Shown: piece after piece, positions 6,568 through 56,935 of the stretch | Layout: every line of letters begins with the position of its first letter | Numbering within the stretch: position 1 is the first letter of the stretch | Assembly (NCBI GenBank): GCA_949296605.1 | Contig: CASFPB010000026.1 | Coordinates: 14,859 to 78,858 of the forward strand | DNA length: 64,000 nucleotides | Reading direction: 5' to 3' | DNA from: an uncultured bacterium | GTDB lineage: Bacteria > Bacillota_I > Bacilli_A > RF39 > UBA660 | The notes under the pieces: model-generated | Databases searched by the model: none | Seen by the model: only the letters and a program-made list of their open reading frames with translations | Told to the model about the DNA's origin: nothing | Position numbers and translations under genes: made by a program

Positions 6568-8271
6568 ATGAAAGAAAATACTAATTTAAAGATATTATGC
6601 TTGTTAATTATAATTTTAATTGGAGTTTTATGTTGGGTTAATTATGATAACTTTTTTATAAACAATAAAGAAGAATATTCAAATTATGCTTTATCAACTT
6701 ATGAAATTGATGTTTCAAATTTTAATTTTGTTAATAAAGTTATTAATAATGAAAAAGTTTATTTATTATATAATTTGGATGATTATTTTTTAGTTAAAGA
6801 AATAGATATTTTAAACAATAAAGTTAATAATTATTCAAAAGCTTTAAATAAAGATTGTAAATTACAAAATGAAGATAATTATCCTTATATTTATTGTAGT
6901 GATAATAATTATGTAACTATTTATGATATAAAATTTAATAAATTAATTAATCAAAGTATTAAAAGCAATTATAACTATGTAATTAATATTGATGGAAGTA
7001 ATTTAAGTTTTGAAATTGGAGATTATAATTATAGTTATCAGTATATTAATGGTTATTATAAAAATACTATAAAAAAATATGTTGAGTTAGAAACACCATA
7101 TACTAAGGATATATTTTGTGATGATTATTGTTTATATATAAGATATAATGATTTAAATCAATTAATTAGTTTATATGATGATACTAATCTTTTAGAAACT
7201 AATATTAGTAATTATGGTTTATTTGAAAAAGGAATTTTTACTTATAATGAAAATAAAATTAAGATACATGATGTAGTAAATGATGAATATAAAGAATTTA
7301 ATAGTCCAATCAATAACTTATCTAATAAATTAATTACTTTGGGAACTAATTATTATTTATATGTTTTAAATGGTAATAAAATAAATGTATATAATTTATA
7401 TACAGACGAAATTATTGAAAATATAACTTTAAATACAGATTATAATATAAATGAGATTGTAGTTAATTATAATAATTTATATGTATTTACTGATAGTTTA
7501 TTATATGTATATGATATTTTTAATATTGAAGGCAATAATGTTGAAAGTTCATTTGTTTATGAAGAAAGATTGATTAATGATAAAATAAATGAATATAAAA
7601 ATAATTACGGTGTTTATATAAATATTTATGATGATCCTAGTTATTTGGATGATCAATATAATGTGTATAAATTAAATAACTATAATGATATTATTAATGC
7701 TTTAGAAGAGTTAGAAGATTATTTTAAAATATTTAATTATGATTTTTTTAATAGATTTAATAAAAATAATTTTAATGGGTTTGAAATATATTTCGTTAGT
7801 GGAATTAATGTGAATAATTCTAATTACAATAGTGTAGATGTAGTTGGTTTATTTACTTTAAAAAATAATAAATATATCATAGCTATAGATGTAAGTGATA
7901 TTGAAGATATTAAAACTATTGCTTGTCATGAAACTATGCATGCAATAGAATATTATTTAAATAATAATAAGATTTATTTTAATGAATGGAATAGTTATAA
8001 TCCAAATGATTTTTCGTATAATGGGGTATATTATACAAATCGAAGTTTTTATGATACTTTAGATTCTTATAAGTTTAATGAGGATGTTTATTTTATAGAT
8101 AACTATGCAAGAAGTAATGTTTTAGAAGATAGAGCAAGAACTTTTGAAACAATATGTAGAGGGGAAGATTATAGTAAATATCCTAATCTTAATGCTAAAA
8201 TTGATTATTTAAAAAGTGTTATATTATCTAATTTTCCAGAGTTATATTTTTCAAGTTATTTTAATAATTAA
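6568..8271 (+). CDS. Membrane-anchored, Asn/Tyr-rich hypothetical protein with an HExxH motif (putative zinc metallopeptidase-like)
   Basis: 567 aa with N-terminal TM (LKILCLLIIILIGVLCW). HExxH within IACHETMHAIEYY near residue 455. Low-complexity N/Y-rich sequence elsewhere. Confidence 0.5.
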   Translation: MKENTNLKILCLLIIILIGVLCWVNYDNFFINNKEEYSNYALSTYEIDVSNFNFVNKVINNEKVYLLYNLDDYFLVKEIDILNNKVNNYSKALNKDCKLQNEDNYPYIYCSDNNYVTIYDIKFNKLINQSIKSNYNYVINIDGSNLSFEIGDYNYSYQYINGYYKNTIKKYVELETPYTKDIFCDDYCLYIRYNDLNQLISLYDDTNLLETNISNYGLFEKGIFTYNENKIKIHDVVNDEYKEFNSPINNLSNKLITLGTNYYLYVLNGNKINVYNLYTDEIIENITLNTDYNINEIVVNYNNLYVFTDSLLYVYDIFNIEGNNVESSFVYEERLINDKINEYKNNYGVYINIYDDPSYLDDQYNVYKLNNYNDIINALEELEDYFKIFNYDFFNRFNKNNFNGFEIYFVSGINVNNSNYNSVDVVGLFTLKNNKYIIAIDVSDIEDIKTIACHETMHAIEYYLNNNKIYFNEWNSYNPNDFSYNGVYYTNRSFYDTLDSYKFNEDVYFIDNYARSNVLEDRARTFETICRGEDYSKYPNLNAKIDYLKSVILSNFPELYFSSYFNN

Positions 8272-42201: not shown

Positions 42202-42278
42202 TGGTAGCGACGGTGTGATTCGAACACACGACCTGCCGGGTATGAACCGGATGCTCTAGCCAACTGAGCTACATCGCC
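42202..42278 (-). tRNA. tRNA-Met (anticodon CAT, elongator-type loop TTCATAC), encoded CCA
   Basis: Reverse complement GGCGATGTAGCTCAGTTGGCTAGAGCATCCGGTTCATACCCGGCAGGTCGTGTGTTCGAATCACACCGTCGCTACCA folds as a cloverleaf with a GTTCGAATC T-loop. Confidence 0.9.
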
Positions 42279-51687: not shown

Positions 51688-52260
51688 ATGAATAAATTAG
51701 CTATATTAGAAGGTTTATTGTTTGTTGTGGGAGATGAAGGTATTTCTTTAGATGAAATATCTAATATAATGTGTATTAATAAAAAAGAAAGTCAAAATTT
51801 ATTAAAACAATTAAGAGAAGAATACAATAATGAAAATAGAGGAATACGTATAAGTTTTATTGGAGAAAATTTTAAATTAACTACTAAACAAGAACATAAA
51901 GAATACTATCAAAAATTAATTACTAATAGTAATAATAATACTTTAAGTCAAGCTGCTTTAGAAACTTTGGCAATTATTGCATATAATCAACCTATTACTA
52001 GAGTAGAAATAGATGAATTAAGGGGAATATCTAGTATTAATATCATTAGAAAGTTAATGGCAAAAGATTTAATTAAAATAAGTGGAAAAAGCTCTTTACC
52101 TGGTAAACCTAATCTTTATAGAACTACTAGTGAATTTTTAGATTATTTTGGACTTGCAACGTTAAATGATTTACCAGAATTGCCTTCCACAAAAAAAAGT
52201 GAGGGTGAAACACAGGAATTATTTTCATCAATATATAAAGAGAAACCTGATGAAGAATAG
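51688..52260 (+). CDS. scpB: Segregation and condensation protein B
   Basis: ILEGLLFVVGDEGISLDEI winged-helix region. Immediately follows scpA. Confidence 0.85.
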   Translation: MNKLAILEGLLFVVGDEGISLDEISNIMCINKKESQNLLKQLREEYNNENRGIRISFIGENFKLTTKQEHKEYYQKLITNSNNNTLSQAALETLAIIAYNQPITRVEIDELRGISSINIIRKLMAKDLIKISGKSSLPGKPNLYRTTSEFLDYFGLATLNDLPELPSTKKSEGETQELFSSIYKEKPDEE

Positions 52261-52831
52261 TTTATTAGAAGTATTGGAAGATAAAAAAGATATTATTGAT
52301 TACTCTTTTAATTGTGAAAATGTTGATTTTAATAATATAGATAATGTTAATTTTAAAAATTGTAATTTTTCCAATATTAATTTTAGTAATATGCAATTTT
52401 TAAATGTAACTTTTTCTAAATGTAAATTTGAAAACTGTGTCTTTGATAATGTAGTATTAAAAAATATTAATTATACAAATTCAAAATTAATTGGGGTCAG
52501 TTTTGATGAATGTATATTAAAAAAAATAAAATATGAAGATTCTTGTCTTACTTATGTAAGTTTTAGTAAGGTTAAATTTGAAGATATAATTTATAACATT
52601 TCTAAAATAATTTATATTTTAATAAAAAATTCTAATTTAAACAACGTAGATTTTCATAGTTGTAATATAGATGAAATAGAGTTTGTTAATTCTAATTGTG
52701 TTAATACTTTTTTATTTTCATCGAAAATATTAAGTGTAAAAGGAGATATAAAAAATTTAAAAGGTGTTTCATTATCTATGGAACAAATTTTAGATATTAT
52801 AATAAATTTTGGGATAATTTTACATGAATAA
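52250..52831 (+). CDS. Pentapeptide-repeat protein
   Basis: Tandem A(D/N)LxX-like pentapeptides (NVDFNNIDNVNFKNCNFSNINFSNMQFLNVTFSKCKFENCVFDNV...). Start set at ATG 52250, overlapping the scpB end. Confidence 0.7.
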   Translation: MKNSLLEVLEDKKDIIDYSFNCENVDFNNIDNVNFKNCNFSNINFSNMQFLNVTFSKCKFENCVFDNVVLKNINYTNSKLIGVSFDECILKKIKYEDSCLTYVSFSKVKFEDIIYNISKIIYILIKNSNLNNVDFHSCNIDEIEFVNSNCVNTFLFSSKILSVKGDIKNLKGVSLSMEQILDIIINFGIILHE

Positions 52832-52855
52832 GTCATATTATTAGTAGGTGATTAT

Positions 52856-53386
52856 ATGACTTTAAAGAAAATTAAAATAATTAATGTAGTTATTTTTTTC
52901 TTGTTATCTTTTTTATGGCATTTTATGTATGATTGGTTACCTTGTTTTTTCACTTCTATATTTTTCCCGGTTAATGAAAGTATTTGGGAACACATGAAAA
53001 TAATATTTGGTGTAATTATATTTGGTTCCTTAATTAATTTAATATTAATGAATAAATTTAAAATTAAACATAATAATTTTTATGTTGAAATTATTATTAA
53101 AGCTATTATTGGAGTTATCTTTTATTTATTAATATTTATACCTTTGTATAAATTAATCGGAGAAAATATGTTTATTTCAATTTCTCTAATGTTTATTACT
53201 TATGTATTTGTAGAATTTTTGGGCTATAAAATACTTAATTTAGATGAATTAAATATTAATATTATGCCTGTGATATTAATAGTTTTGTGCTATATTTTGT
53301 TTGGTTTATTAACTTACTTTCCAAGACATAATTATTTGTTTTTTGATGAAGTTAAGTTGGTTTATGGGATACCTTCAAAGAATTAA
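52856..53386 (+). CDS. Hypothetical polytopic membrane protein
   Basis: 176 aa with 4-5 predicted TM helices. Confidence 0.5.
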   Translation: MTLKKIKIINVVIFFLLSFLWHFMYDWLPCFFTSIFFPVNESIWEHMKIIFGVIIFGSLINLILMNKFKIKHNNFYVEIIIKAIIGVIFYLLIFIPLYKLIGENMFISISLMFITYVFVEFLGYKILNLDELNINIMPVILIVLCYILFGLLTYFPRHNYLFFDEVKLVYGIPSKN

Positions 53387-53445
53387 TATATATTTTATTT
53401 AATTTTAGTATGCAAATTTAATATATTATGTTATAATCTATTTGT

Positions 53446-53532
53446 GCCCGAGTGGCGGAATTGGTAGACGCGGCGGACTCAAAATCCGTTGGTAGTAATA
53501 CCATATCGGTTCAAGTCCGATCCCGGGCACCA
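53446..53532 (+). tRNA. tRNA-Leu (anticodon CAA), long variable arm, encoded CCA
   Basis: GCCCGAGTGGCGGAATTGGTAGACGCGGCGGACTCAAAATCCGTTGG...GGTTCAAGTCCGATCCCGGGCACCA. Anticodon loop CTCAAAA. Confidence 0.9.
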
Positions 53533-53542
53533 GATTGATAGT

Positions 53543-53570
53543 AAACTCGAACTTTTAGTTTCGAGTTTTA
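53543..53570 (+). terminator. Terminator after tRNA-Leu
   Basis: aaactcgaa / ttcgagttt stem. Confidence 0.6.
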
Positions 53571-53610
53571 ATATATTTAAAATTATGTTGTGCTTTAATT
53601 AGGGGGTTTT

Positions 53611-54351
53611 ATGAGTTATAATTCTTTTGATATTATGCATTATATTATTTTAGCAAGTGTATTAGAGCCAATTCCTGAAAAGGAAGGGTGCACTTCTAGA
53701 AAAAAAGATTGGCAAGAAAAATCTAAATTAGAATATTTTCTTATATCTGGTGTTAACATTGGACAAATATTTTATGAATTATCTGAAAGAATAAAAAATA
53801 ATAATTATAAACAACCTAAATTATTATATGATTTAGCTTATAAAGCACAAAAAAAGAGTTTTGATAATAGAAATGGTGGAAAAATAAATTTTGGAATTAT
53901 AGAATTGTTAATACCAATTGTTAGCACGCAAATAATTACTCATAAATTTGATATCAATGTATTAGATGAAGTAGAAAATTTATTAAAACATACTACATAT
54001 AAAGATGTAGTATACCATTATAAATTTAGAAAAATAGCACATAGTGTTTCAAAACAGTTTCCTAATATCATAAATTATAAAGTTGCTAATTTGTTTGATT
54101 ACTATAAATTAAAAAAAGAAGAATTGGAAAATAATGTTCATGAAGAATATATAACAGGATTTAAAAGAATAAAAAAAGCATATTTAATTTTAGAAAATAA
54201 TTATAAAGACGGAAATTTGCTTGAAATTTCCATAATTGCTTATAATTCGATTATAGATGAGTGTAATAATTATGCAGGCTTGGCAGCGGACTTTATTTGT
54301 GTTGCAATTTATTTTTATTTGATAAATCACCCTAAAGCGATAATAGTATAA
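53611..54351 (+). CDS. Hypothetical protein with weak, unverified CitG / triphosphoribosyl-dephospho-CoA synthase-like motifs
   Basis: Strong RBS AGGGGGT. 246 aa. SGVNIGQIF and C-terminal AGLAADFICVAIYFYL are reminiscent of the CitG GxNTxxG and GGxADL regions, compared from memory only. Confidence 0.3.
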   Translation: MSYNSFDIMHYIILASVLEPIPEKEGCTSRKKDWQEKSKLEYFLISGVNIGQIFYELSERIKNNNYKQPKLLYDLAYKAQKKSFDNRNGGKINFGIIELLIPIVSTQIITHKFDINVLDEVENLLKHTTYKDVVYHYKFRKIAHSVSKQFPNIINYKVANLFDYYKLKKEELENNVHEEYITGFKRIKKAYLILENNYKDGNLLEISIIAYNSIIDECNNYAGLAADFICVAIYFYLINHPKAIIV

Positions 54352-54457
54352 AGTTGTTGAGTATCTTATATAATTAATTAAACTCTAATCTTCATGTTTC
54401 GAGTTTTAATTTTATTTAATTTTTGGTAAAATAATTTATATTAATGGAGATGTTAGC

Positions 54458-55471
54458 ATGCAAGAATATCTTAATATATTTATTGATGAAGATTATCCTA
54501 AATTTATTGATAAATATTTAAATACAAAAACATTAGAGCGTTTAAAACATATAACTCAATTTTGTGGTTGTGATTATACGCAATTGTATTCACCGTTATT
54601 TTTATATACTAGATTTGATCATAGTTTAGTAGTGGCTAATATGACTTGGCACTTTACCCATAATAAAAAAGAAACAGTTGCAGCTTTACTTCATGATATA
54701 GGAACACCTTGTTTTGCTCATTCAATTGATTATGTTTTTGGGGATTATCTTAATCAAGAATCTTCTGAAAAAAATATTATTGATATTATAAAAAAGGATG
54801 AAGAATTATACGATTATTTAAAAGATGATAAAATTACATTAGAAGATTTAAATTGTTTAGATAACTATGACATTTTAGAAAATAAATCACCAAAATTATG
54901 CACTGATAGGTTGGATGGTGTTTTACATACTTGTTATATATGGTTACACACACATTCATTAGATGATATAAAGAAAGTTTACGATAATATTATTGTTTTA
55001 AAAAATGAAGATGGTAGATTAGAAATTGGATTTAATGATGTTAAAATAGCTGAAAAATTTGTTGGCATGGTATTTATTTATGCTAAAGAACTACAAGGAA
55101 ATAGGGATAAATTTGTTATGAAATATGTTTCTGAAATAGTAAAGCTTGCATGTAATAATAAACTTATTATGTTGGAAGATTTATATAATAAAAAAGAAGT
55201 TGATTTATGTAATATTTTTTCAAAAAACTTTAAATCATGGAATTATTTTAATATTGTTACAAGTATTAAAAATAGTAAAAATAAACCTTTATATAATTTT
55301 TATATATCTTTTGATACAAAAAAAAGAAATACTATACCGTTAGTTAAATGTAACAATAAAATTGTTAGGATTAATGAAATATCTAATTATGCAAAAGAAA
55401 TTTATGAAAGATTAAATAAGTTTAAAGATTATAAATATGCGTATGTAGAAGAAATCGAAGATATAGTGTAA
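54458..55471 (+). CDS. HD-domain metal-dependent phosphohydrolase
   Basis: H...HD metal-binding signature (RFDHSLVVANM ... AALLHDIGTPCFAHSID...D); 337 aa. Confidence 0.65.
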   Translation: MQEYLNIFIDEDYPKFIDKYLNTKTLERLKHITQFCGCDYTQLYSPLFLYTRFDHSLVVANMTWHFTHNKKETVAALLHDIGTPCFAHSIDYVFGDYLNQESSEKNIIDIIKKDEELYDYLKDDKITLEDLNCLDNYDILENKSPKLCTDRLDGVLHTCYIWLHTHSLDDIKKVYDNIIVLKNEDGRLEIGFNDVKIAEKFVGMVFIYAKELQGNRDKFVMKYVSEIVKLACNNKLIMLEDLYNKKEVDLCNIFSKNFKSWNYFNIVTSIKNSKNKPLYNFYISFDTKKRNTIPLVKCNNKIVRINEISNYAKEIYERLNKFKDYKYAYVEEIEDIV

Positions 55472-55514
55472 TATTTAGAAAAATACATAGATTTAATTTA
55501 ATAATTTTGTTAGA

Positions 55515-56042
55515 ATGTATGTAGGATGTGATATAGTGAGTATTAATAAACATAGAAAAGATTATTTATCTTGGGATGAATATTTTATGGGAATTGCAAA
55601 GTTATCTGCTTTAAGAAGTAAAGATCCTTCAACACAAGTTGGTGCTTGTATTGTAAGTAGTGATAATAGAATTTTATCAATGGGATATAATGGAACTCCG
55701 AATGGATTTGATGATCAAGATTTTCCTTGGGATAGAGAAGGTCATGCTTTGAATACCAAATATTTATATGTTTGTCATGCTGAACTTAATGCTATTTTAA
55801 ATTTTAGAGGTCATAAAAGAGACTTTGAAGGGGCTAAAATTTATGTTGCATTATTTCCTTGTAATGAATGTGCAAAGGCAATAATACAATCAGGTATAAA
55901 AGAAGTAATTTATTTAAGTGATAAATATAAAGATCAAGATAATTTTAAAGCATCAAAAATATTATTTGATAAATGTAATGTAAAATATAGAGAATTAATA
56001 GTAGAGAAAAACAAAAAAATATGTTTGGATTTAACTGTATAG
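55515..56042 (+). CDS. dCMP deaminase (ComEB-like cytidine/deoxycytidylate deaminase). Start may be GTG 55536.
   Basis: Zinc motifs HAELNAI and PCNECAKAI. YFMGIA...ALRS matches the ComEB N-terminus. Confidence 0.8.
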   Translation: MYVGCDIVSINKHRKDYLSWDEYFMGIAKLSALRSKDPSTQVGACIVSSDNRILSMGYNGTPNGFDDQDFPWDREGHALNTKYLYVCHAELNAILNFRGHKRDFEGAKIYVALFPCNECAKAIIQSGIKEVIYLSDKYKDQDNFKASKILFDKCNVKYRELIVEKNKKICLDLTV

Positions 56043-56053
56043 GTGGTGTAGTC

Positions 56054-56935
56054 ATGGATTTAATTGAAAGATTAAGAAAAGGCAAAGGTTTTATTGCTGC
56101 ATTAGATCAAAGTGGTGGTAGTAGCAAAAAAACATTAGTTAATTATGGATTTTTAGAAAAAGATATTATTAATGATGATGTAATGTTTGATTTTATTCAT
56201 CAAATGCGTAGTAGATTAATTAGTAATAAATATTTTGATAGCAAGCATATTTTAGGTGTTATATTATTTAATAAAACTATGAAAGGCCAAATTAATGGTA
56301 TAAATACTGTTAAATATTTAAGTGATAAAGGAGTTGTTTCTTTTTTAAAAATTGATTTGGGGTTAGAAGAAAAATCTGATGGAGTTCAATTATTAAAAGA
56401 CATTGATAATTTAGATGATATTTTAAAAGAAGCAAAAGAATATGGAATTATTGGAACAAAAATGCGTTCAGTAATTAAAGAATATAATGAATATGGCATT
56501 AAAAAAGTTGTAGAACAACAATTTAAGTTAGCTAAAAAAATAATTTCTTATGGATTAATTCCAATAATAGAACCAGAAGTTGATATTAATTCTAAAGATA
56601 AAAAAAATATCGAAACATATTTAAAAAAAGAATTATTAATGCATTTGGATAAAATGAATAAAGAAGATTATATTATTTTTAAATTTACTTTACCAGATAT
56701 ACCAAATTATTATGATCCTTTATTAAAATATAAAAATGTTTTAAGATTAGTAGCGTTATCTGGTGGATATGATAGAAATAAAGCTTGTGAATTACTCAAA
56801 CTAAATAAAAATATGATTGCAAGTTTTTCTAGAGCATTGTTAGAAGGATTAAGTATTAATCAAAATGATGAAGAATATTCTAATATTTTAAATAATACTA
56901 TTAAACAAATATATGATGCTTCAGTAAAAAAGTGA
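56054..56935 (+). CDS. fda: Class I fructose-bisphosphate aldolase
   Basis: KGKGFIAALDQSGGS N-terminal signature of Gram-positive class I FBA. Start at ATG 56054 after an AGGTGGTG RBS. Confidence 0.8.
   Translation: MDLIERLRKGKGFIAALDQSGGSSKKTLVNYGFLEKDIINDDVMFDFIHQMRSRLISNKYFDSKHILGVILFNKTMKGQINGINTVKYLSDKGVVSFLKIDLGLEEKSDGVQLLKDIDNLDDILKEAKEYGIIGTKMRSVIKEYNEYGIKKVVEQQFKLAKKIISYGLIPIIEPEVDINSKDKKNIETYLKKELLMHLDKMNKEDYIIFKFTLPDIPNYYDPLLKYKNVLRLVALSGGYDRNKACELLKLNKNMIASFSRALLEGLSINQNDEEYSNILNNTIKQIYDASVKK

Follow-up and report, generated by a model that had tools for sequence, protein, structure and literature searches.

In the CitG reaction adenine is displaced from ATP, and the 5-triphosphoribosyl group becomes attached by an alpha(1''->2') linkage to the 2'-hydroxyl of an adenosine moiety; to our knowledge this chemistry is known only from the synthesis of the prosthetic groups of citrate lyase and malonate decarboxylase. 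On the side of mobile DNA, integrative mobilizable elements (IMEs), recombinase-less cis-mobilizable elements (CIMEs) and their accretion have been described in Firmicutes, where tRNA genes and the 3' end of rpsI are known targets (PMC5704250). In the present study we analyse a 64-kb stretch of DNA from an uncultured bacterium (hereafter the window), in which an open reading frame (ORF) for a divergent CitG-superfamily protein of 246 residues, ORF1, lies behind a tRNA-Leu(CAA) gene and between two copies of a repeat, followed by ORF2, whose product of 337 residues resembles HD-domain phosphohydrolases, and by a dCMP deaminase gene. The explanation that we favour, with moderate confidence, is that of a CIME-like islet at the tRNA-Leu gene, whose only gene would encode a CitG-type enzyme serving something other than citrate lyase, with ORF2 as a separate gene.

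The tRNA-Leu(CAA) gene occupies 53446..53532 of the plus strand (ARAGORN; Rfam RF00005, 53.4 bits) and its encoded CCA directly adjoins the repeat. The first copy, which is similar to a left attachment site (attL-like; 53528..53594, plus strand), was recognised by an nhmmer profile, a terminator scan and the hairpin energy. It is formed by CCA followed by GATTGATAGT, a hairpin AAACTCGAAC...TTTCGAGTTT (53543-53568), TTTTAAT and a degenerate extended -10 sequence, TGTTGTGCT. The ribosome-binding site of ORF1, AGGGGG, can be read from the sequence at 53601..53606, and ORF1 itself, assigned by PF01874, hhalign and an AlphaFold2 model, extends over 53611..54351, both on the plus strand. Beyond it lies a second, decayed and attR-like copy (54372..54432, plus strand), assigned from an exact 15-mer and a pairwise alignment; its hairpin arms are AAACTC at 54380-54385 and GAGTTT at 54401-54406, and an extended -10 sequence, TGGTAAAAT (54424-54432), follows before ORF2.

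The relationship between the two copies is supported by several comparisons. Two exact occurrences of the 15-mer GTTTCGAGTTTTAAT are present in the window (53558 and 54396), and when up to two mismatches are allowed it matches three times against an expectation of 0.47. A gapped alignment of 53541-53580 with 54378-54418 has 33 of 41 columns identical and a score of 43, compared with 20.2 +/- 3.6 for shuffled sequences (1 of 2000 equalled it), and copy 2 is the top non-self match in the window to the spacer between the tRNA and ORF1. Copy 1 was also found by an independent nhmmer profile built from metagenome copies only (53525-53582, E = 1.3e-12). The AAACTC...GAGTTT arms are present in both copies, and in copy 1 the hairpin has an energy of -8.9 kcal/mol (z = -2.8). 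The facts reported in an earlier note on this DNA, namely the tRNA-Leu gene, both ORFs, the strong ribosome-binding site, the dCMP deaminase and a repeat with these arms bracketing ORF1, are all borne out, and the repeat proves larger than the note had it. A third copy was looked for after ORF2 and nothing above background was found, and an Rfam scan of 52800-56100 returned no RNA family besides the tRNA, which rules out a known RNA family as the identity of the repeat.

Only ORF1 is found between the repeats, with neither a recombinase nor a relaxase, which excludes an IME and leaves, at most, a CIME-like relic. Because ORF1 stands alone between an intact and a decayed copy, the segment is best described as a single-gene, recombinase-less islet of about 0.85 kb, and we consider it probable that 53528-54432 is such an islet at tRNA-Leu.

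The flanks of ORF1 loci, when aligned, define an element of about 70 nt, present after numerous tRNA and tmRNA genes of related gut Bacilli and consisting of GATTGATA, a hairpin and a promoter-like TGnTAnAAT, which reads as CCA followed by GATTGATAnnAAACTCGAAC, a loop, GTTCGAGTTTTAAT and then TGnTAnAAT; CACCAGATTGATAnnAAACTCGAAC would be a candidate att sequence. The 24-nt core of the element is present in at least 120 metagenome stretches, and 85 of the 122 core matches listed abut the intact 3' end of a tRNA or transfer-messenger RNA (tmRNA). The tRNAs concerned among these listed matches are Leu-CAA (15), Thr-GGT (12), Thr-CGT (9), Arg-CCT (9), Leu-TAG (6), Phe (3) and Ala (2), and about 25 of the matches adjoin tmRNA. 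The sole other tRNA of the window, a tRNA-Met at 42202-42278 of the minus strand, is not followed by a trailer element, hence the element is not universal after tRNAs in the source genome.

A second copy on the same strand, this time lacking a tRNA, stands 0.9-5.8 kb downstream in 14 of the 120 loci listed. In L129, L091, L040 and L063 the order is tRNA or tmRNA, element, serine recombinase, Mob_Pre, cargo, element; the intervals of this type encode a protein of about 90 residues, a large serine recombinase of 620-640 residues (Resolvase, Recombinase and Zn_ribbon_recom domains), a Mob_Pre relaxase and cargo. The presence of a serine recombinase and a MobV relaxase between the copies identifies these intervals as IMEs, of which L001 provides a further serine-recombinase/Mob_Pre example. 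Other two-copy intervals carry cargo genes only. Thus, at L061:3546-9010, the 24-nt core appears in three exact copies after ScpB and tRNA-Leu(CAA), and these bound two cargo-only cassettes, one containing Peptidase_C26, NT5C and a membrane protein, and the other an IU_nuc_hydro nucleoside hydrolase, a Nuc_deoxyri_tr2-like deoxyribosyltransferase-like protein and a kinase; the genes of these cassettes are of nucleoside or nucleotide salvage. Neither ORF1 nor ORF2 was found in any of the 120 listed metagenome element loci. These element-bounded intervals match the IMEs, CIMEs and tandem accretion known in Firmicutes. An integron cassette was set aside, there being no integron integrase and the repeat being a tRNA trailer and not attC.

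The homologues of ORF1 point in the same direction. When element copies near ORF1 were placed with the profile built only from metagenome copies, they were located 86 nt upstream of the gene in the window and in L007, 154 nt upstream in L008 and L009, 161 nt upstream in L011, 30 nt downstream in L010 and 71 nt downstream in L015 (E = 8.5e-14). Further homologues lie directly after a tRNA array ending in tRNA-Arg (L012/13), after tRNA-Lys (L014), after rplM-rpsI (L005 and L016), beside the serine-recombinase/Mob_Pre IME (L001/L017) and in a defence island (L004). In L015 the homologue begins 66 nt after a tmRNA (6810-7175; Rfam RF00023, 109.9 bits) missed by ARAGORN, and past the homologue come an orphan GTCCACCA and the element copy; in L016 a 42-nt direct repeat of 86% identity flanks the gene. 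The promoter region and the 3' flank of ORF1 are common to L010-L013 despite their different tRNAs. The synteny of ScpAB with tRNA-Leu(CAA) is kept in L007, L011, L035, L061, L120, L125 and L128, and what follows ScpB-tRNA-Leu(CAA) is ORF1 in the window, L007 and L011 but other cargo in L061, L120 and L125. The earlier note had considered a small mobile insertion at the tRNA 3' end, and this finds support in relatives, where the element bounds IMEs and cargo islets and the cargo at this site varies. In the explanation favoured here, the 3' end of tRNA-Leu(CAA) would act as an integration hot-spot for small integrative elements in the lineage. The ORF1 islet would be a CIME-like relic of such element-bounded integration.

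Upstream of the tRNA, the window carries a pentapeptide-repeat ORF (52166-52831) whose listed coordinates share 95 nt with the 3' end of scpB (51688-52260); owing to this overlap the ORF probably begins at a later position. Between this ORF and tRNA-Leu sits a gene for a DUF6512 membrane protein (52856-53386), and both genes are missing at the corresponding position in L011 and L061.

Several observations weigh against the islet. There is no compositional signal, the G+C content being 24.3% in the window and 22.8% in ORF1, with ORF2 also undeviating. The hairpin of copy 2 (-3.8 kcal/mol, z = -1.4) is not significantly stable, and this copy was missed by the profile trained on independent copies, so that the attR assignment rests on the 41-column pairwise match and on analogy. 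No recombinase was found in or near the islet. The ScpAB-tRNA-Leu-ORF1 synteny recurs in L011, which makes the insertion old or partly vertically inherited. Finally, the element could be a lineage-wide tRNA trailer or terminator, perhaps used by IMEs as an attachment site; a ubiquitous terminator motif would, according to the earlier note, have spoken against its reading, and this is half borne out, as the element is indeed widespread after tRNAs of the lineage but has just two copies in the window.

Taken together, the even composition, the synteny in L011, the failure of the independent profile at the downstream copy and the common use of the element as a tRNA trailer would also be expected if there had been no insertion, ORF1 being vertically inherited after tRNA-Leu and both hairpins being ordinary terminators kept independently. 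We judge this quite unlikely, since homologues of ORF1 are spread over at least six genomic sites, including several classic targets of integration, flanking repeats are seen again in L016 and L015, and ScpB-tRNA-Leu sites at similar divergence hold other cargo between exact repeat copies. Moreover, the downstream hairpin is decaying instead of being maintained, and in L007, a relative of 97% identity, it has collapsed to -1.1 kcal/mol.

The islet, as we interpret it, resembles the CIMEs and IMEs exemplified by IMESag-rpsI and IME_tRNALys (Guedon et al. 2017, PMC5704250) in the integration at the 3' end of tRNA, tmRNA or rpsI, in the putative flanking direct repeats and the tandem accretion, and in the existence of autonomous relatives with a recombinase and a MobV relaxase, together with relics that keep att-like repeats and cargo. 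One difference lies in the recombinase of the related elements, a large serine enzyme in place of the tyrosine integrase customary for tRNA and rpsI sites; another is that the repeat is a tRNA trailer/terminator/promoter element of about 70 nt and not part of the tRNA body. The islet is also extremely small, with one gene in about 0.85 kb.

The protein encoded by ORF1 matches the Pfam family CitG (PF01874) with 35.7 bits (gathering score 27), the match spanning profile positions 7-196 of 284, so that the weak resemblance to CitG noticed in the earlier note is substantiated. At E <= 0.01, PF01874 is matched by 40 of 66 members of the ORF1 family. A profile of these 66 members was compared by hhalign with a CitG profile (A3) composed of E. 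coli CitG and five borderline matches from the ORF1-profile search, which gave a probability of 99.4% and E = 1.7e-21 across some 146 N-terminal columns; the comparison with E. coli CitG alone was uninformative and the six-sequence profile was needed. Residues E19, K24, R30, E41/F43, N93/G95 and D227 of ORF1 correspond to E32, K38, R44, E56/F58, N110/G114 and D281, which are invariant in A3; the pairing of D227 with D281 lies outside the hhalign block and was taken from a common motif. The AlphaFold2 model is all-alpha, with a predicted local distance difference test score (pLDDT) of 89.8.

Against this assignment stand the partial coverage of the Pfam profile, the lack of any NCBIfam match at E <= 1, the citG and mdcB equivalogs included, and a structure search in which no solved or viral structure resembled the model, leaving it without a solved comparator. 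A phmmer search of PDB sequences gave chance matches only. Clustering at 90% identity sorts the close homologues into 74 groups, every one of them from metagenome-assembled genomes of uncultured Bacilli or Tenericutes. A profile search of 1.84 billion representatives yielded 159 clusters at 50% identity, in which CitG of canonical length surfaces only in the tail at E = 1e-5 to 1e-7; ORF1 thus falls in a branch of the superfamily that is small and set apart. In agreement with the earlier note, which had seen no citrate-lyase or malonate-decarboxylase genes, tblastn with E. coli CitC/D/E/F/X detected no such genes either in the window, where the best E value was 0.76, or across 394 kb from related loci, and the Pfam-annotated contexts of the family are without cit or mdc genes. 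From these sequence comparisons we conclude that ORF1 falls within a small, divergent CitG branch untied to citrate lyase and is plausible as a catalyst.

Compared with CitG/MdcB, ORF1 has in common the homology, the all-alpha fold, the E, K, R, E/F, N/G and D positions and, presumably, the ATP-dependent ribosyl-transfer chemistry. On the other hand, it is about 45 residues shorter (246 versus ~290) with a diverged C-terminal half, lacks a match to the citG and mdcB equivalogs, and belongs to a separate clade of 159 clusters that never adjoins citCDEFX or mdc in the contexts examined and whose members are standalone or fused to HD, HAD_PNKP or cNMP-binding domains. A normal CitG or MdcB, working for a citrate lyase or a malonate decarboxylase whose genes lie at another locus of the genome, would agree with the PF01874 score above threshold and with the conserved core residues. 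It is nevertheless extremely improbable: cit genes are absent both from the window and from the 394 kb of ORF1 contexts that were examined, the equivalogs do not match, canonical CitG is confined to the tail of the profile search, only the N-terminal ~150 columns of the shorter protein align, and the host organisms have reduced genomes.

Hints about the function of the branch come from its fusions and neighbours. About 19 of the listed representatives of the family are multidomain proteins, and at least 12 members have an N-terminal HD domain of the HD-GYP/HD_5/HDOD type with the motif HHxxQxxxYP. Among the architectures represented by P0223, P0271, P0235/P0263 and P0216, one member combines a HAD_PNKP phosphatase domain with the CitG-like domain, and P0223, from Woesearchaeota, a cNMP-binding domain with it; further fusions involve two kinds of N-terminal domains of about 250-320 residues, those of P0235 and P0216 having no match in Pfam or the PDB. 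Two loci unrelated to each other, L025 and L151/152, have an ADP-ribosylglycohydrolase gene (ADP_ribosyl_GH) beside the CitG-like gene, and other neighbours of distant family members are His_Phos_1 (L027), Glycos_transf_3 with HAD (L029), HAD (L004) and HD (L001). The HD-222 protein of L001 was considered as kin of the fused HD domains and rejected, only the generic HD motif being in common. A B12-binding radical-SAM gene adjoins the CitG-like gene in a pair of unrelated loci, L001:7328-8584 of gut Bacilli and L027:5140-6513 of an archaeon, which may be coincidence or a further functional link. The hosts that could be named are Woesearchaeota, an unclassified archaeon, Bdellovibrionales and gut Bacilli, all of them host- or prey-dependent; L151 has the appearance of the candidate phyla radiation.

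The HD and HAD fusions together with the ADP-ribosylglycohydrolase neighbours suggest an ATP-dependent transfer of a (tri)phosphoribosyl group to an acceptor other than CoA. By analogy with CitG, ATP would most likely be the 5-triphosphoribosyl donor in ORF1, with release of adenine, and the ribosyl group would pass to a hydroxyl of an acceptor different from the precursor of the citrate-lyase cofactor, a phosphohydrolase acting before or after the transfer. Reasoning from the known chemistry of CitG, we offer as a tentative possibility that the branch performs this reaction on another acceptor, with the phosphohydrolase preparing the acceptor or trimming the product. A more elaborate proposal, speculative and on balance improbable, is that the family represents a new class of (tri)phosphoribosyl transferases, in which ATP would be the donor and the hydroxyl of an adenosine-containing molecule other than dephospho-CoA the acceptor, partners of the HD, HAD and His-phosphatase types would trim or prepare phosphates, ADP-ribosylglycohydrolases would be the erasers, and the genes would travel as mobile cargo among host-dependent microbes for salvage, signalling or defence. 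Candidate acceptors would then be a nucleotide, NAD or ADP-ribose, or the 3' end of an RNA or tRNA, and the candidate bond, again by analogy, an alpha(1''->2') linkage between riboses of the type found in poly(ADP-ribose). A literature search retrieved no paper tying CitG to defence, HD domains or ADP-ribosylglycohydrolase.

The release of adenine from ATP is also the activity of the ATP nucleosidase immune effectors of the Detocs/CBASS Cap17 type, which have a PNP-like fold. ORF1 could be compared with them in the adenine leaving group, if water were its acceptor, in its nature as mobile cargo and in the single cNMP-binding member of its family; its fold, however, is unrelated, PADLOC gives no match, and the window contains no cyclase or sensor partner. 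An anti-phage effector of abortive-infection type, in which the CitG-like domain would cleave or consume ATP with release of adenine under the control, in the fusions, of nucleotide-sensing domains, would account for the occurrence of ORF1 as cargo at IME and att sites, for a homologue of 42% identity located amid Abi_C, ApeA-HEPN, YopA and Piwi+SIR2 in L004:1-12747, and for the cNMP-binding fusion P0223 and the HD-GYP/HDOD-like fusions of other members, adenine displacement from ATP being established CitG chemistry. The organism of L004 is GC-rich. Nevertheless, we regard such an effector as unlikely, given that no PADLOC (E <= 1) or PHROG model matches ORF1, that no family member was found on the viral contigs scanned nor any viral fold matching the model, and that the standalone protein of 246 residues is devoid of a sensor domain. 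Furthermore, many neighbours in the family are metabolic (ADP-ribosylglycohydrolase, His_Phos_1, HAD and Glycos_transf_3) and the homologues in L005 and L016 are surrounded by housekeeping genes.

ORF2 (54458..55471, plus strand) was assigned by Foldseek and by its conserved ligands as an HD dNTP-triphosphohydrolase-like protein of the EF1143/SAMHD1 type. Its score against Pfam HD, 21.0 bits, falls just under the threshold of 22, and it is also far below that of the NCBIfam dGTPase model NF002205 (17.8 bits versus 439); the PADLOC dGTPase model gives 17.8 bits and E = 4.2e-4. The sequence contains the dNTPase-type motifs RLKHITQ, TRFDHSL, LLHDIGTPCFAH and TDRLD, and H55, H79-D80 and D150 are invariant across 25 homologues. 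In the AlphaFold2 model (pLDDT 83.2) the fold matches E. faecalis EF1143 (3irh/4lrl/2o6i) with template-modelling (TM) scores of 0.63-0.65 and a Foldseek probability of 1.00, and A. aeolicus 2hek and SAMHD1 are matched with the same probability, the TM scores spanning 0.60-0.65 across 3irh, 4lrl, 2o6i and 2hek. The earlier identification as an HD phosphohydrolase thus finds support in the fold more than in the Pfam score. The likeness to EF1143 and SAMHD1 comprises the fold, the H...HD...D metal ligands and LLHDIGTPCFAH, which resembles HDIGHGPFSH; the differences are a shorter chain (337 versus ~450 residues), an identity of only 13-19%, scores under the Pfam HD and NCBIfam dGTPase thresholds and the replacement of the second His of HDxGH by Thr. 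The family has at least 596 clusters, the best 120 of which are all at least 65% identical to ORF2. As judged from the predicted structure, ORF2 is a dNTP triphosphohydrolase-like enzyme of the EF1143/SAMHD1 type that is common in the lineage.

In L019:5065-11483, and also in L020, a homologue of ORF2 is found about 0.9 kb past a tRNA and an element copy, followed by a protein of 354 residues of no assigned family, a reverse transcriptase (RVT_1) and a UvrD helicase. This cluster may be a defence system based on reverse transcriptase.

ORF1 and ORF2 are not one unit. The earlier note had taken them for a two-gene unit, and a joint pathway processing a nucleotide derivative or a cofactor, possibly with the dCMP deaminase (175 residues; 55515-56042; PF00383, 94.6 bits), could be imagined from the fact that both genes are co-oriented neighbours in the window and in L007, that distant ORF1 homologues are often fused to HD domains, and that the product of a CitG-type reaction would bear a 5''-triphosphate which a triphosphohydrolase might in principle cleave off. 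Yet among the 15 ORF1 loci (the window and 14 others) ORF2 adjoins ORF1 outside the window only in L007, the relative of 97% identity, which is one of 14; the ORF2-homologue loci examined (L018, L019/20 and L021/22) contain no ORF1 and have no dCMP deaminase adjoining, and the proposed link of the deaminase to the pair is not conserved either. The ORF2 family is about eight times larger than that of ORF1 (at least 596 clusters versus 74), and the decayed element copy, with its intact promoter-like extended -10 sequence, intervenes between the genes. The HD domains fused to ORF1 relatives were also examined as relatives of ORF2 and ruled out, as hhalign gave a probability of 0.4% and only the superfamily motif is in common, the fused domains being HD-GYP-like. 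These findings make a shared pathway very unlikely, and ORF2 and the dCMP deaminase gene are separate genes outside the islet.

In uncultured gut Bacilli, the trailer element of about 70 nt is a marker of serine-recombinase IMEs of very small size and of the relics that retain only their cargo, and it offers a simple sequence handle for mapping accessory genes in the genomes of these organisms. The cargo described here belongs to a CitG branch that is independent of citrate lyase and is conserved in reduced-genome gut Bacilli, DPANN archaea and predatory bacteria. Its fusions with phosphohydrolases, the ADP-ribosylglycohydrolase neighbours and its transport as mobile cargo would be consistent with a ribosyl-nucleotide product or modification that has not yet been described.

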